Origin: a bacterium | Lineage (GTDB): Bacteria; Bdellovibrionota_C; UBA2361; CALJRW01 | Length of the DNA: 64,000 bases | Reading direction: 5' to 3' | NCBI GenBank assembly: GCA_031385045.1 | Contig: JANNBC010000007.1 | Span: 32,001-96,000, forward strand | Shown: one piece after another, positions 52,247 through 58,379 of the stretch | How positions within the stretch are numbered: the stretch's first letter is position 1 | Layout: every line of letters starts with the position of its first letter | Position numbers and translations under genes: made by a program | The notes under the pieces: generated by a model | Databases searched by the model: none | Seen by the model: only the letters and a program-made list of their open reading frames with translations | What the model was told of the DNA's origin: nothing

Positions 52247-53116
52247 TTAAGCAGCGTCTTCTACTGCTTCAGCCGTTGCTTCTTTAGCTGCCAAACAGAC
52301 AGTATTATCAGAAGCTAAATGATAAACATCTAATTCATCACCAAAGCGCTGAAAACCATAACGTACGGCTCCACCATTATCTCGTAACAAGTCACGACAA
52401 GCCTTGTCTTGATCTGAGAACCAAAGTTCTTGGTACTTTGATAACAATTCAGTATCATCTAACAATTCACGATCAATCATTGCCAAGCAACGAGTATCAA
52501 TCATTACTTTTCCAACAGAGGTTGGAGCATTAGCAATTATCTCTTCAAAATCAACTTCATCATGAGAGGAATCATGAATCACGATTCGACAAGAATAAGG
52601 GTTTCTAAGAATTCGATAATTTCCCGGGCTTAGCTCTATAACAACACCACCAAACTTTTTAATTACTTCATTCTTTTCTGTTGGATCTGAATCAATTAAG
52701 TCCAAAAGTGCTCGATGTAATTGTGGATTAGCTAACATAAACTGATCAATGATCACCATATGTCCACTTTCAATAGCAATTCTTTCTCGCAAGTTACCGC
52801 TGTTATTATCAGATCGACCAAAACGACCTCGGCCGCCTCCGCCACCTTGACGCCGACCACCGCCACCGCCACCGCGCCAGCTTCCGCCACCGCCGCTTCC
52901 ACCGCGACCACCACCAAATCTGCGACCGCCAGCACCTTGTCCACGACCGCCGCCTTCGCTGCGACCACTCTCACTCCGGCTACCTTCTCCACGGCCACCC
53001 TCTCCGCGACCTCCACCATTGCTACCGCCACCACTTCTTTGACGACCGTATCGTCCTCCACCATTATTGCTTCCACCGCTTCCGCGAGAATCTGAATTTC
53101 TCATTGCGTTCTCCAA
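52247..53116 (-). CDS. Protein with Gly/Arg-rich disordered N-terminus and acidic globular domain of unknown function
   Basis: About 105 aa of GR/RGG/SG low complexity, then a folded domain with an internal pseudo-repeat. Confidence 0.75.
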   Translation of the reverse strand: MENAMRNSDSRGSGGSNNGGGRYGRQRSGGGSNGGGRGEGGRGEGSRSESGRSEGGGRGQGAGGRRFGGGRGGSGGGGSWRGGGGGGRRQGGGGGRGRFGRSDNNSGNLRERIAIESGHMVIIDQFMLANPQLHRALLDLIDSDPTEKNEVIKKFGGVVIELSPGNYRILRNPYSCRIVIHDSSHDEVDFEEIIANAPTSVGKVMIDTRCLAMIDRELLDDTELLSKYQELWFSDQDKACRDLLRDNGGAVRYGFQRFGDELDVYHLASDNTVCLAAKEATAEAVEDAA

Positions 53117-53652: not shown

Positions 53653-54264
53653 TTATTTGATATTACTAGATATTTTATATTCACAATGTTCACGAACAAG
53701 GCACTTTTGGCACTTTCTCTCTTCTGGAGTTGGCTTAACTGGAAAATCTTCATCTAGAATCTGCCTCATTTCCATTAAATGTCGATCTAACCACTGTTGT
53801 TTTTTCTGGGTATTTAGAATCTTAACACTACGAGCCTTTTTGCCTAGAATTAGATAACCATAAGGTGGCTTCTTACCCTCAAGCTCCTCAATCAATCTCA
53901 TGCTCACTAACAGTTCAACCACAAAACGATCTCTAATCTTATTAGCCAGGGGCTTACGTTCTACGGGAATAATATAGCCCCCCTCAACTAATAGGGCATC
54001 AGGTCTAGCACTAAGCAATTGACGTTCAGAAATATATTCTTTTGTTTCCTTAAAAAAACTACTGGGAGAAAGTACTGAATCAATCTTTAAATTTACACCA
54101 GAAGTTTTTCTTTTTTTCTGAGCAATTGTCGAGAAAGCATCAAGTACAATCACCAGAACTACCAGCAGAATGAGTAGCCAAAATACAAGAGAGGTCGTGT
54201 TGGAAAGTTGCTCGAAGAGAGAAGCAAGTTCACTTGCTAATTGACTTAAATATTCTTTCAACAT
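53653..54264 (-). CDS. Cas4-like PD-(D/E)xK nuclease with N-terminal TM helix (lacks the first Fe-S Cys)
   Basis: TM helix, LSARPD, PVERK, PPYGYL, C-terminal CQKC-x5-C. Confidence 0.75.
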   Translation of the reverse strand: MLKEYLSQLASELASLFEQLSNTTSLVFWLLILLVVLVIVLDAFSTIAQKKRKTSGVNLKIDSVLSPSSFFKETKEYISERQLLSARPDALLVEGGYIIPVERKPLANKIRDRFVVELLVSMRLIEELEGKKPPYGYLILGKKARSVKILNTQKKQQWLDRHLMEMRQILDEDFPVKPTPEERKCQKCLVREHCEYKISSNIK

Positions 54265-54280
54265 TTATAAACACAAAAAA

Positions 54281-54544
54281 TTAGTGTATCTGCGTGAACA
54301 AATAAACAATAATTAAAAAGAAAATCATGAAAATAATTAAGTTAGTAGCCCAAGTTAAATAACGTGCCGCATCAAAATCAGCCAACCAACTCTTCATAAT
54401 CTCCTGACGTTCTGGCTCCGATTTTTGATCTGGCGGCATCACTTGTTTACGATAGAGCAAATTCCAGCTTTCAGGACAATGCAGATAACTAGCAATATCC
54501 TTTGCAGTGATAATAATTTTACCCTCTTTACTTAAATGGCCCAT
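54281..54544 (-). CDS. Small membrane protein carrying a Cas4-like N-terminal motif
   Basis: IITAKDIASYLHCPESW resembles the Cas4 N-terminal I..S.I..Y.YCPR motif; C-terminal TM helix. Confidence 0.7.
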   Translation of the reverse strand: MGHLSKEGKIIITAKDIASYLHCPESWNLLYRKQVMPPDQKSEPERQEIMKSWLADFDAARYLTWATNLIIFMIFFLIIVYLFTQIH

Positions 54545-54696
54545 CTGCTTTTATAAATTAAATGGAGAGTGACTTAGTCTAGAAATTAGTAACATTTGAA
54601 ATCTGAGCGCACCCTTCTGAAATTATGAGTACGCATTTTCAACTATTATATGAATCAACAAGTGAAACTTGCAATAAGCTTAGTAAAGATTAGAAC

Positions 54697-55176
54697 TTAT
54701 TTCTTACTAACAATTTTTTGTAAAATTTCGTTTAATTTAGATCCTGTAATTAAACTTTGTCGGGAATTCGTGCTTAACTCATAGACCGATCTTAAGTCTG
54801 GCGCAGTTAAAATTTCATCGTAACGACTATCACAAATTGGAATATGGGCTGTCTCGATAATATACTGAGCCTCAGGTGATTGATTATTAGTTATCTTCCA
54901 AAAAGCATATTTAGCTGTTGAAGAATAAAATCGGCAACTTAATACAAAAGAATTCATCTCTGTAGTTTCAATCGCAACAATTAAATCACTGTCTGCTTTC
55001 AAACTAAAGTTGAATTTAAGGGCTTCTAACCATGCTTTTTTAGCACGGTAAGCCGATAGCTCATCCACGTAATTTCCATGGATCGTATCAGTATCTGGAT
55101 CAAAACAAACCCCTTCGAAATAAGGAATTTCTTTAATGTGTGGTAACTGCTTTGTTTGGATTTGAACTGAATTCAT
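54697..55176 (-). CDS. Hypothetical protein
   Basis: 159-aa ATG ORF with AAGG RBS-like sequence upstream; no recognised motif. Confidence 0.6.
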   Translation of the reverse strand: MNSVQIQTKQLPHIKEIPYFEGVCFDPDTDTIHGNYVDELSAYRAKKAWLEALKFNFSLKADSDLIVAIETTEMNSFVLSCRFYSSTAKYAFWKITNNQSPEAQYIIETAHIPICDSRYDEILTAPDLRSVYELSTNSRQSLITGSKLNEILQKIVSKK

Positions 55177-55515: not shown

Positions 55516-56583
55516 TTAATAATTTTTAGTAGTTACGGGAAGGCTCATCTTTAAATTTAACCAACTGACATCAAGCCCTGGACCAAAAGCTATTAAGGTT
55601 AACTCTTCCGAGGTATCACGTTCGTTCTTTAAAAACTCTTGCAAACAAAAAAATATTGTTGCTGATGACATATTGCCGAATTTTTTTAATACCGAATAAC
55701 TTGCCTCTAAATCTGATAATTCTAAGCCTTCAGCGACAGCCTTTAAGATTGCTTTCCCACCAGGATGTACAACAATGTTTTTCTTACGATAAAAACTGCT
55801 AAAGGCTGACTGTTTAAGAATTTCTTTAATATAATTCGGAAGCCGAGGGGAGAGTCCCATTAGCCACCCTGACGGAGTAATATTCCAAGATAAATATTCT
55901 GTCGCCTCCGAAAATGTCTTTGTCCCAACCTGAGAAATTTGTAAGTGACTTAGATTTTCATCTTGACTATTTCTTAGGGCAATAAAGGCACAACCATCGC
56001 TAAACAAGGCATTACTAATCTGAATTTCAGGATCAAGAGTATTCTGATAATGAAGCGAACAAGCTTCCACACAAATGACCAAAACAATTTTTTCAGTGAT
56101 TAGCTGACAAAGTCCTGCAGCACTATGCAGTCCAACAACGCCGCCATGACAACCCATAAAGCCAAGATGCCAGTGAATACAAGAATCAAGGGCTAGATGG
56201 CTTACTATTTTTGTATCAAGTGTCGGGTTTGTTAGTCCTGTGCACGAAACTGTAATCACACCTCCAATTTCATGAGGATTAATCTGATTAGTTAAAATAA
56301 AATGATCTAAATTTTTTAGAATCTCCGGCAAGACCACACCAACATAATGGTTATTTCTCTCTACCGTCCCGGGGATTTTATTTAAATAAAATTCTTTCCA
56401 ATCTGATAAGTAGGTATATCTTTCCTCCACAGCTGTCTGTCTAATCATGCGGCTATGTCCCAGAGTCCAATTCGTAACATTAGCTTCTTGAAATCCAAGA
56501 TACTCATTTTGCAATACATGATTAGGAGCTGGATAAACTCCGATACATAGAATACCTACTGGATTATTTTTAAGATCAGTCAT
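55516..56583 (-). CDS. Type III polyketide synthase
   Basis: Catalytic triad GFMGC, HPGG, GNMSS; also VSCTG, E.CSLH, ALFSDG, FGPG. Confidence 0.93.
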   Translation of the reverse strand: MTDLKNNPVGILCIGVYPAPNHVLQNEYLGFQEANVTNWTLGHSRMIRQTAVEERYTYLSDWKEFYLNKIPGTVERNNHYVGVVLPEILKNLDHFILTNQINPHEIGGVITVSCTGLTNPTLDTKIVSHLALDSCIHWHLGFMGCHGGVVGLHSAAGLCQLITEKIVLVICVEACSLHYQNTLDPEIQISNALFSDGCAFIALRNSQDENLSHLQISQVGTKTFSEATEYLSWNITPSGWLMGLSPRLPNYIKEILKQSAFSSFYRKKNIVVHPGGKAILKAVAEGLELSDLEASYSVLKKFGNMSSATIFFCLQEFLKNERDTSEELTLIAFGPGLDVSWLNLKMSLPVTTKNY

Positions 56584-56592
56584 TAATAATTA

Positions 56593-57672
56593 TTACCATA
56601 ACTTAGAAGCTAGTGGAGCGATATAAGGGATTAAGGGAAATAAAAATTTTCTTTTTATAGAACTCTCAATAATCCAAGTGATCATTTGACAACGTGCCCA
56701 TTGTCTTTTTTGTAATATTCTAATTTCTTTTTTCCAAAGCTTAGTGCTGATGTCAGAAATTTCGCGTCGATCTTGAAAGTTCAATGTAATCAGCTCTGCT
56801 AATCTCTCTGCAGTTTGAATTGCGAAATACATTCCTTCGCCTGTAAATGGCTCGGGATAACCCAAGGCGTCACCACAAAGAAAAACTTTTCCCTGAGCTG
56901 GCAGTCGCTTACGATATAAAGTTTCTGTCGCTGACTTTTCGTGAAGTTCTTCTAGTAAAAAATATCTTTTAAGAAAATCAGAAGTGTGAAGTTTTTTACC
57001 ACGTAGATAAGAAGCGATATGAAAGTAAGGCTCCTCCCCTGCAACTCTCACAACACCATGGTAACCAAAATTATCAAGAAGAAAACGGACCTCTCCGCAT
57101 GGAAGGCTATCTAACCCATGTGGATCACCGGCAATTTTTTTTAGGTACCCTTGAAATCCAAAGCCGTTCTTCTCTAACCGTTCCTCTGGCCATTCAGGCA
57201 GTGACTTTGTGGCAATTCCACCACAGTCAATAATAAGATCAAAGATTTGCTCCTGGCCATTACAGAGAAGAAGACCTGCTACTGAATCAATAATTTTTGC
57301 CTTCTTGTTAATTAGAGTCACTCCCTGTTGCACGGCGATGGTTCTAATGGCGTTATCAAGTATTGACCGATCGATCCACCTTCCATGATTATGCTTAAAT
57401 GAAATAGTACTTTCGACGGAAACGAGTGATATTGTATTAATTGGAGTTCCCGGAATTATGACAGAACTTAATCCATGTTTAACTAAAATCTGGACTGCCT
57501 CTTTATGGAGACATCCACCACATACCTTACCAAGTCTTAATACTTCTGGAAGAGATTTTTTTTCAAATAAATAGATGTTTGAGAAGCCTTTAGTACTTAG
57601 TAAGTATGATAAGAAACTTCCACATATTCCTGCGCCAATAATCGCAATCTTGGGGCTTATATTGTTTATCAC
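56593..57672 (-). CDS. FAD-dependent oxidoreductase (geranylgeranyl reductase/monooxygenase-like)
   Basis: GAGICG, KVCGGCL, R..LD, GDA...EPFTGEGM. Confidence 0.85.
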   Translation of the reverse strand: MINNISPKIAIIGAGICGSFLSYLLSTKGFSNIYLFEKKSLPEVLRLGKVCGGCLHKEAVQILVKHGLSSVIIPGTPINTISLVSVESTISFKHNHGRWIDRSILDNAIRTIAVQQGVTLINKKAKIIDSVAGLLLCNGQEQIFDLIIDCGGIATKSLPEWPEERLEKNGFGFQGYLKKIAGDPHGLDSLPCGEVRFLLDNFGYHGVVRVAGEEPYFHIASYLRGKKLHTSDFLKRYFLLEELHEKSATETLYRKRLPAQGKVFLCGDALGYPEPFTGEGMYFAIQTAERLAELITLNFQDRREISDISTKLWKKEIRILQKRQWARCQMITWIIESSIKRKFLFPLIPYIAPLASKLW

Positions 57673-58379
57673 AAGATAGACTCTAAGAGTATTCGTTCAG
57701 GGAATACTTTACTAACTTGATAACTAGATTCGATAGCTTGTCTCTCCCATTCTTGATGATTGTAGGAGCGATAAACAGAAACTCTTGCGTCATGATGAAC
57801 AACTTTGCTTCTTGTAATTACTTTAGGAAATAAATTAGCTAATAATAATCCTTTTTTAGTTCGTAAAAGATCTTCGTGTCTTACAGCCAACACTGCCTTC
57901 CTTTTAGTTAAATGAAGGAATGGTAAAATTTCAGTAGGATCTAAATGATGTAAAACTAAATTTGTATTGATTAATGAATAGTTTCTTTCAACTTCTTCCA
58001 ACCTTTCTGAGGAATAATTAATTTGAGATTCATTATTGTATGATTCTGCAATCGAAATTAAAGTTTTATTAAGATCAATTCCGTAAAATTTAATATTTAA
58101 GTTATTAATTTTAGCAAAATTATGTAAGTATCTTAATAGACCACCCCCACCACAGCCAATATCTGCAAAAGAAAACTCTTCGCTTAATTTATGATTTAAT
58201 TTTTTATATTGTACTTTAAGCCAGTTAGCTGTTCTATAAAAGTTACCACTCAAATAATTAATTCTATTTAATGTAATTTCTACAGCTGATAATTCTTGCA
58301 ACGAAAGTCCTTTTTGATCCATTAGTTCTTGCAAGTAAGGTCGCTGCTCTAAAAGCTTGGGTATTTTAGTTATTTTCAC
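57669..58379 (-). CDS. SAM-dependent methyltransferase of the type III PKS cluster
   Basis: ELMD, RIN, DIGCGGG, LHHL, DL.R, HDA..SV.RSY. Confidence 0.88.
   Translation of the reverse strand: MKITKIPKLLEQRPYLQELMDQKGLSLQELSAVEITLNRINYLSGNFYRTANWLKVQYKKLNHKLSEEFSFADIGCGGGGLLRYLHNFAKINNLNIKFYGIDLNKTLISIAESYNNESQINYSSERLEEVERNYSLINTNLVLHHLDPTEILPFLHLTKRKAVLAVRHEDLLRTKKGLLLANLFPKVITRSKVVHHDARVSVYRSYNHQEWERQAIESSYQVSKVFPERILLESIL

Follow-up and report, generated by a model that had tools for sequence, protein, structure and literature searches.

A Cas4-like nuclease fold divided between two predicted membrane proteins, with a degenerate active site in one bacterial genus

The CRISPR-associated Cas4 nucleases (PF01930, TIGR00372; structures 7MI4, 8D3L, 4IC1 for SSO0001, and 4R5Q for Pcal_0546) are among the closest described relatives of a gene pair found in the 64,000-nucleotide stretch of DNA analysed here (the window). 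They have in common with it the fold (Z of 17.9 to 7MI4), the staple of 1 + 3 Cys and, for the intact relatives of the pair, the His, PD, ExK, QxxxY, and GYL motifs; however, the pair consists of two polypeptides, has, following the His helix, an inserted membrane hairpin, and is accompanied by no cas1 or array that could be found, and the window copy also lacks the His, Gln, and Tyr. Like the pair, solo-Cas4 proteins occur outside CRISPR loci and are vertically inherited, but they have been described as one soluble polypeptide with four Cys, whereas the pair comprises two open reading frames (ORFs) with a hydrophobic helix each. The main text of Hudaiberdiev et al. 2017 (PMC5704561), in the available part, ascribes four Cys to every member and uses neither 'transmembrane' nor 'split', and the accessible part of a report on M. 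mazei describes its solo-Cas4 as a single oligomeric protein (PMC12501428). The iron-staple domains of AddB, AdnA, Dna2, and Exonuclease 5 also have fold and staple in common with the pair (Z of 10-15), and one plasmid copy of the pair lies beside a DinG/YoaA-like helicase, reminiscent of AddB, AdnA, and Dna2; unlike these proteins, however, the pair has no fused helicase, bears membrane helices at the insertion point, and is made of two chains. The Argonaute-associated ACE1 (9IAB, 9IAC) is another Cas4-family fold outside CRISPR (Z of 12-13), but its identity to the pair is 10-13% and no Argonaute was found among the recurrent neighbours scanned. A literature search returned no description of the split membrane layout, which subscription papers and supplements could still contain. 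The pair is a conserved variant of a known nuclease family with the PF01930 fold, similar in presumed working to the Cas4/AddB iron-staple nucleases, well supported in its architecture and apparently unpublished; it lacks a CRISPR association and departs from the published description of solo-Cas4.

The pair is encoded by two adjacent minus-strand ORFs in different frames, at 54281-54544 (87 aa, small chain A) and then 53653-54264 (203 aa, large chain B), separated by 16 nt (54265-54280) that correspond to the outer-loop position of fused relatives; ORFs, coordinates, motifs, and spacing were all present as described in the original prediction, which had proposed a split, membrane-anchored Cas4-like nuclease. 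ORF and profile comparison assigned to chain A the N-terminal part of the Cas4 fold and a C-terminal membrane helix. This chain contains ITAKDIASYLHCP, and its Cys23 (54476-54478, minus strand), the putative first Fe-S ligand of the iron staple, is kept in the small chains or N-terminal parts compared (59/59, 26/26, and, for Chloroflexota among the best 80 of 591 loci, 71/71). The position of the G-x3-H metal-ligand motif, Arg46 to Met50 (54395-54409, minus strand), is degenerate here. The predicted transmembrane helix of chain A (about residues 67-87; 54284-54346, minus strand; N-in/C-out, with an outer tail of nearly nil) is hydrophobic in 31/31 small chains. Chain B has an amphipathic N-terminus, a predicted transmembrane helix (residues 26-44; 54133-54189, minus strand; N-out/C-in), a PD-(D/E)xK core, and three C-terminal Cys. 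Its RecB motifs II and III, with Asp89, Glu102, and Lys104 (53953-54003, minus strand; RPD and ERK), are intact, and the QxxxY position reads ELLVS (Glu117, Ser121; 53902-53916, minus strand) and is degenerate. Cys185, Cys188, and Cys194 (CQKC-x5-C; 53683-53712, minus strand), the three putative C-terminal Fe-S ligands, are invariant in 54/54 homologues; equivalents were found in 57/59 loci of the order (the other two being cut off or frameshifted), 27/27 loci of other orders, and 80/80 Chloroflexota loci (best 80 of 591). One hydrophobic 19-mer was found per chain on the Kyte-Doolittle scale (residues 69-87 of chain A, 2.47; residues 26-44 of chain B, 3.14).

For the family assignment, chain B passed Pfam PF01930 (27.2 bits, cut-off 22.7) and fell below the cut-off of TIGR00372 (42.4 bits versus 65), and chain A had no match in Pfam, NCBIfam, or PADLOC families. 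The N-terminal Cys motif was absent from the B chains (0/54 and 0/57), and four Cas4 Cys are reached only across the two chains, 1 in chain A and 3 in chain B, a residue census that confirmed the division predicted earlier. In the window genome, the chain A and chain B profiles each matched this locus only. A sigma-70-like site at 54674-54645 was within chance counts (10 found versus 12.3 expected).

The 16-nt gap is real and not an assembly error, because an independent contig, from run X2 of a different study, spans 54041-54588 and bridges the junction unchanged (0 differences, 0 gaps). Frameshifting or readthrough at the junction was likewise ruled out, as a TAA precedes the gap, the length of which differs among relatives. 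The loss of three active-site residues in the window copy could be taken as a sign that the locus is an assembly artefact or a decaying pseudogene, but virtually nothing remains of this explanation: besides the identical contig, a split was found in 41/59 loci of the order and in 26/31 metagenome loci, gap lengths varied among split loci, and between the window pair and its congener pN (0.15-0.17) was far below pS (0.76-0.79, saturated), revealing purifying selection. The split therefore stands, and although fusions exist, splits were commoner among the loci examined. At one related locus (L038; contig C149 of genome G019), chain B lies in two frames with a 147-aa first part, representing an error or a pseudogene.

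Chain B was detected in 110/124 genomes of the phylum, nearly always at a single locus, and in 67/73 of the high-quality genomes; it also matched 38/41 relatives, and the source labels of homologues were Bdellovibrionales, Oligoflexia, or Deltaproteobacteria. The layout census drew 86 loci from 85 genomes among the 110 positive for chain B and revealed 49 split pairs, 36 natural fusions, and 1 locus cut by a contig end. The order of the window contributed 41 split and 18 fused loci, the other orders 8 split, 18 fused, and 1 truncated, and a further 31 metagenome loci comprised 26 split, 1 fused, and 4 truncated. Outside the phylum, a distant-homologue scan yielded 591 GTDB loci, and all 79 with a named group among the best 80 of them were Chloroflexota. 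The small-chain profile, built from the window's order, found the partner upstream on the same strand in 71 of these 80 Chloroflexota loci (best 80 of 591), with no small chain seen within the flanking DNA examined at the other 9; in some Chloroflexota, chains A and B lie 0.6-0.9 kb or about 4.5 kb apart. Among 201 sampled genomes of Chloroflexota, 63 had a near full-length match above 107 bits, and the weaker matches are probably ordinary Cas4. The available part of the supplement of the 2017 survey (PMC5704561) records one solo cas4 each in Anaerolinea, Caldilinea, Roseiflexus, and Herpetosiphon, and these genes are probably chain B of the split pair. Look-alikes of chain A in the Atlas were hypothetical proteins of 89-101 aa from Bacillota and Chloroflexota.

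Furthermore, five plasmid records matched, of which the B. subtilis and Paludisphaera copies that were opened carry both chains with intact motifs; no small chain was seen at the Planctomyces sp. SH-PL62 locus. Thus the two ORFs co-occur in a conserved two-gene layout across the phylum and beyond, and the statement in the original prediction that similar pairs exist in other phyla proved right, for Chloroflexota (71/80, best 80 of 591) as well as for B. subtilis and planctomycete plasmids. No relative was found in viral contigs (two alignments), and the fusion was unmatched in phage records. An extra split pair (83 and 162 aa), divergent but with its motifs intact, was found in one genome (locus L084, G062:C24) that also has a degenerate resident fusion; the extra pair may have been acquired horizontally. 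A 635-aa relative (P0280) combines many hydrophobic helices and the nuclease domain with two C-terminal TRAM domains.

The natural fusions suggest how the two chains belong together. They join A to B between the two hydrophobic helices, through loops of 6-54 residues (median 20), and thus carry a two-helix hairpin at the position of the break; all four Cys are invariant in the 34 fusions compared, and 33/34 match PF01930 at E up to 0.01. Chain A matches the N-terminus of the fusions (hhalign probability 99.8 over 84 columns), and the profile of the fusions aligns to both ends of Cas4 8D3L (whole-protein E of 3e-05), with the chain A-equivalent stretch, weak alone (8.7 bits), aligning to 8D3L residues 3-48 including the Cys and the G-x3-H helix. 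In an AlphaFold2 model of one fusion (L019; pLDDT 88, pTM 0.83), both halves fall within one fold, because its superposition on Cas4 7MI4 (Z 17.9, 186 residues, rmsd 3.6) spans model positions 6-279; the natural fusion is thus predicted to fold as one Cas4 domain, as modelled on a relative's fusion and not on the window pair. In the Foldseek search, Dna2 and AdnA topped the list together with Cas4. For the topology, Lys + Arg were higher on the N-terminal, soluble side of the helix in 24/31 A chains (1 versus 0 across the helix in the window's own chain A) and on the C-terminal, soluble side in 54/54 B chains. This positive-inside bias predicts that both soluble halves are cytoplasmic, on the same side of the membrane, as a joint nuclease at the membrane would have it. 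Moreover, fused and split states changed 10 times on a quick tree, with at least 3 changes forced by strong branches; the trees were quick searches that left out L037, L038, and L081 as truncated, and the fused/split tree used 10/80 Chloroflexota rows. From the fusions, the L019 fold, the charge bias, and this tree, it is very likely that A and B assemble at the cytoplasmic face as an obligate heterodimer, the pairing of the window chains being extrapolated from the model of the relative's fusion.

The original prediction had also suggested that assembly of the cluster across two chains gates activity. Under such a scheme the split would be a switch operated by cluster assembly or redox, or the degenerate forms would be membrane Fe-S sensors, and the persistence of all four Cys where catalytic residues are gone, the distances of 0.6-0.9 kb or about 4.5 kb between the genes in some Chloroflexota, and the inactivation of SSO0001 by cluster loss, reported in the accessible part of the literature, could be read in this way. 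However, the genes usually abut and are likely co-translated, and the split is dispensable because 36/86 phylum loci are fused. In addition, Cys mutants of Pcal_0546, SSO1391, LinCas4, and the M. mazei solo-Cas4 (the last in PMC12501428) lose the cluster yet cut, according to the available parts of these reports. The repeated fusion and splitting, together with these mutants, speak against gating, and the switch is a quite improbable explanation.

In addition to the cluster, the catalytic site is also divided between the chains, because the metal-ligand His lies in chain A of relatives, where G-x3-H is present as well as the first Cys. His62 of SSO0001 is a metal ligand on a helix equivalent to that of G-x3-H, as given in the available parts of three papers (PMC13621843, PMC8610317, PMC4176176). 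Chain A of the window has RQEIM in place of this motif, which is found in 57/59 loci of the order, a difference that the original prediction did not mention, and the residues at the His, Gln, and Tyr positions of the window pair are Met50, Glu117, and Ser121, respectively. Across these 59 loci, Asp, Glu, and Lys are kept in all (59/59), His and Gln in 57/59, and Tyr in 56/59; the two loci lacking all of His, Gly, Gln, and Tyr are those of the window genome and its congener, which belong to one genus. The His of chain A and the Gln and Tyr of chain B are thus lost in the same 2/59 loci, indicating coupling across the chains, and this coupling within the window's degenerate clade concerns one genus, because a metagenome scan added no further member of the clade with a small chain. 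In other orders, replacement of His by Arg (22/26) is accompanied by that of Tyr by His (18/27) and of Glu by Asp (20/27), with all Cys kept, and the Chloroflexota loci (best 80 of 591) keep every active-site residue. The tree places the two degenerate groups apart and so favours two independent origins of degeneration, although a single origin fits too (AU p of 0.3).

Within the portion of PMC4176176 available, mutation of Gln149 or Tyr153 left Pcal_0546 with almost no activity, and SSO1391 H80A had none. It is rather likely, judging from the residues lost, that the window copy is weak or inactive as a nuclease; the original prediction had treated it as a working enzyme with one variant motif, a view that the joint loss of His, Gln, and Tyr does not support. 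An unlikely alternative, which draws on several features, is that the nuclease is still fully active through a remodelled site in which Glu117 replaces His as metal ligand: the window copy retains Asp89, Glu102, Lys104, and the GYL Tyr and is under strong purifying selection, a Glu also occupies the Gln position in P0003, P0004, P0006, P0007, and P0008, and, according to the accessible part of PMC4176176, solved Cas4 structures place the Gln near the metal and significant activity remained in SSO0001 Q131A. This last mutant, and the possibility that the Gln-to-Glu change stands in for the lost His, count against a weak or dead enzyme. Among the closest unplaced relatives, however, the catalytic Lys is gone in P0004, Asp replaces Glu102 in P0006, P0007, P0008, and P0015, and P0015 has Ala at the Gln position; furthermore, the window copy has also lost the QxxxY Tyr, whose mutation nearly abolished activity in two Cas4s in the reports as far as available.

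Regarding the genomic context, Cas1 (PF01867) had no match in the window genome (94.9% complete) and a simple repeat scan of the genome found no CRISPR-like array, extending to the whole of this genome the earlier claim that neither is nearby. Tandem repeats of 99 nt at about 8200-10050 of contig C38 of genome G000 probably belong to a repetitive protein gene and not to a CRISPR. No helicase was found among the ORFs flanking the pair in the window, and the PF12705 match of the genome lies elsewhere, in a 934-aa frame. In PADLOC-DB 2.0 (library of 2023), Cas4 models alone matched chain B, and 7 window neighbours had weak methyltransferase matches at most; Pfam scans of 28 and of 71 recurrent neighbours detected no defence genes.

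These results bear on a role in defence, which the original prediction had placed at phage DNA entry. An anti-phage or anti-plasmid nuclease attacking DNA in transit across the membrane would suit the membrane location and the nuclease fold, the plasmid copies, the second, divergent pair in one genome (L084), and a weak match between a fusion and DruK models (E of 1e-6); ACE1, moreover, is a Cas4-family enzyme that reportedly acts in Argonaute immunity (PMC12094033). On the other hand, chain B occurs in 67/73 high-quality genomes with synteny across the order, the neighbours scanned are free of defence genes apart from the weak methyltransferase matches in the window, and catalytic decay over whole orders fits poorly with such a role. 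The pair behaves as a single-copy core gene amid housekeeping neighbours, and the defence role proposed earlier is rather improbable.

Neighbours at the Chloroflexota loci (best 80 of 591) include a translin-family gene (55/80), SSB (17/80), RecN (13/80), a NYN/YacP-type gene (7/80), and ComEA (6/80), counts whose independence is overstated by the kinship of the genomes; the remaining neighbours are mostly unrelated genes with housekeeping functions. The translin-family gene, the commonest of the Chloroflexota neighbours (best 80 of 591), lies upstream of the pair on the same strand (e.g., L118:3344-4024; loci L109-L188) and matches PF01997 below the cut-off (E of 1e-4), with the NCBIfam label PRK14562 'haloacid dehalogenase superfamily'; no translin was beside any examined locus of the window's phylum, and a literature search found no paper joining 'translin' and 'Cas4'. 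On a 65-kb B. subtilis plasmid (CP120602.1; L220:4342-7663), an operon contains the DinG/YoaA-like helicase, a 77-aa gene, A, B, and hfq, and two further B. subtilis plasmids match; umuDC and a relaxase lie near the pair on the Paludisphaera plasmid. ComEC flanks 4 loci of the window's order. However, ComEC is independent of the pair, because family f28 keeps ComEC in 6/6 genomes with neither chain B (0/6) nor chain A (0/5). Co-loss of the pair with ComEC was not seen. In family f8, the gene immediately downstream of the fusion is comEC, and one f16 genome has a divergent comEC at a distance of about 1.8 kb (L032, L033, L096, L023).

The preferred reading, to which we assign a probability of roughly 45%, is that the pair serves membrane-tethered handling of single-stranded DNA in a housekeeping role. 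In this model, A and B would pair into an obligate heterodimer at the inner face of the cell membrane, with chain A contributing Cys23 (and, in intact relatives, the metal-ligand His) and chain B presumably contributing Asp/Glu/Lys, QxxxY, and three Cys; since the ligands are divided between the chains, the Fe-S staple and the active site would form only when both helices pack as a hairpin. By analogy with the biochemistry of Cas4, AddB, and Dna2, intact members may trim or nick single-stranded or branched DNA at the membrane, and candidate substrates are repair intermediates or DNA brought in through uptake or conjugation. In the window's genus, a weak or dead nuclease has likely been retained as an Fe-S-stapled DNA tether that binds more than it cuts, because purifying selection maintains Asp, Glu, Lys, the GYL Tyr, and all Cys despite the loss of His, Gln, and Tyr. 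The neighbours from DNA metabolism (SSB, RecN, ComEA, ComEC, the DinG/YoaA-like helicase, umuDC, and the relaxase) were counted in favour of handling single-stranded DNA, and the commonest Chloroflexota neighbour (best 80 of 591), the translin-family gene, was counted against it as fitting RNA as well as DNA.

Indeed, the same heterodimer could act on RNA or RNA-DNA, as a membrane-tethered turnover nuclease with RNA-binding partners. This would agree with the translin-family gene at 55/80 and the NYN/YacP-type gene at 7/80 of the Chloroflexota loci (best 80 of 591), with hfq immediately downstream on the B. subtilis plasmid, and with the two TRAM domains that end the multi-helix relative P0280, and RNase Y is an example of a membrane-anchored RNase. 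However, translin binds single-stranded DNA too and is beside no examined locus of the window's phylum, and the Cas4 literature, in the parts available, reports DNase activity; the probability of an RNA substrate is accordingly low. RNA turnover, a remodelled site, defence, and assembly gating are thus weaker rivals of the housekeeping reading with single-stranded DNA.

A wider interpretation, which is doubtful at present, would see an undescribed but widespread class of two-subunit inner-membrane nucleases with staple and metal site formed across the chains. Together with translin, Hfq, or a DinG-type helicase, such nucleases would act as gatekeepers of single-stranded nucleic acid at the membrane, and on more than one occasion they would have turned into a catalytically inactive DNA tether, still stapled by Fe-S, that belongs to the core genes of an entire bacterial phylum. 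If so, many catalogued bacterial solo-Cas4 genes would be half-enzymes. Of the solo-Cas4 genes, one widespread bacterial group turns out not to be solo: neither the first Cys nor the metal-ligand His is encoded by the annotated gene, both of them residing in an unannotated membrane protein of 80-90 aa upstream, and the annotated gene expressed alone would likely yield a dead protein. What such genes do is directly testable in Herpetosiphon and on the B. subtilis and Paludisphaera plasmids, where cultured organisms carry intact copies, and with the single-chain fusions, with the degenerate yet conserved form of the window as a natural control that suggests a non-catalytic role.

Other genes around the pair were also characterized. 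Upstream, at 54697-55176 on the minus strand, lies a gene for a 159-aa soluble protein with invariant AFW and ETAH motifs, which has no Pfam or NCBIfam match and is present in 122/124 genomes of the phylum; its model predicts a small alpha/beta fold with no clear structural match (best Z 6.8), and no PDB sequence match was found. This gene adjoins the pair in 39/51 loci of the order and 0/27 elsewhere, and it was rejected as an obligate third subunit, being a core gene of the lineage that is unlinked elsewhere and present in f28, which shows neither chain. On the other side, 52247-53116 (minus strand) encodes a protein of 289 aa whose long N-terminus is rich in Gly and Arg and whose C-terminal domain is highly conserved and matches no family; the gene is located divergently upstream of the cluster in 31/51 loci of the order and downstream on the same strand in the window's genus. 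Finally, 55516-58379 (minus strand) looks like an ordinary small biosynthetic cluster, in which a type III polyketide synthase gene precedes those for a probable FAD-dependent oxidoreductase and for a methyltransferase.
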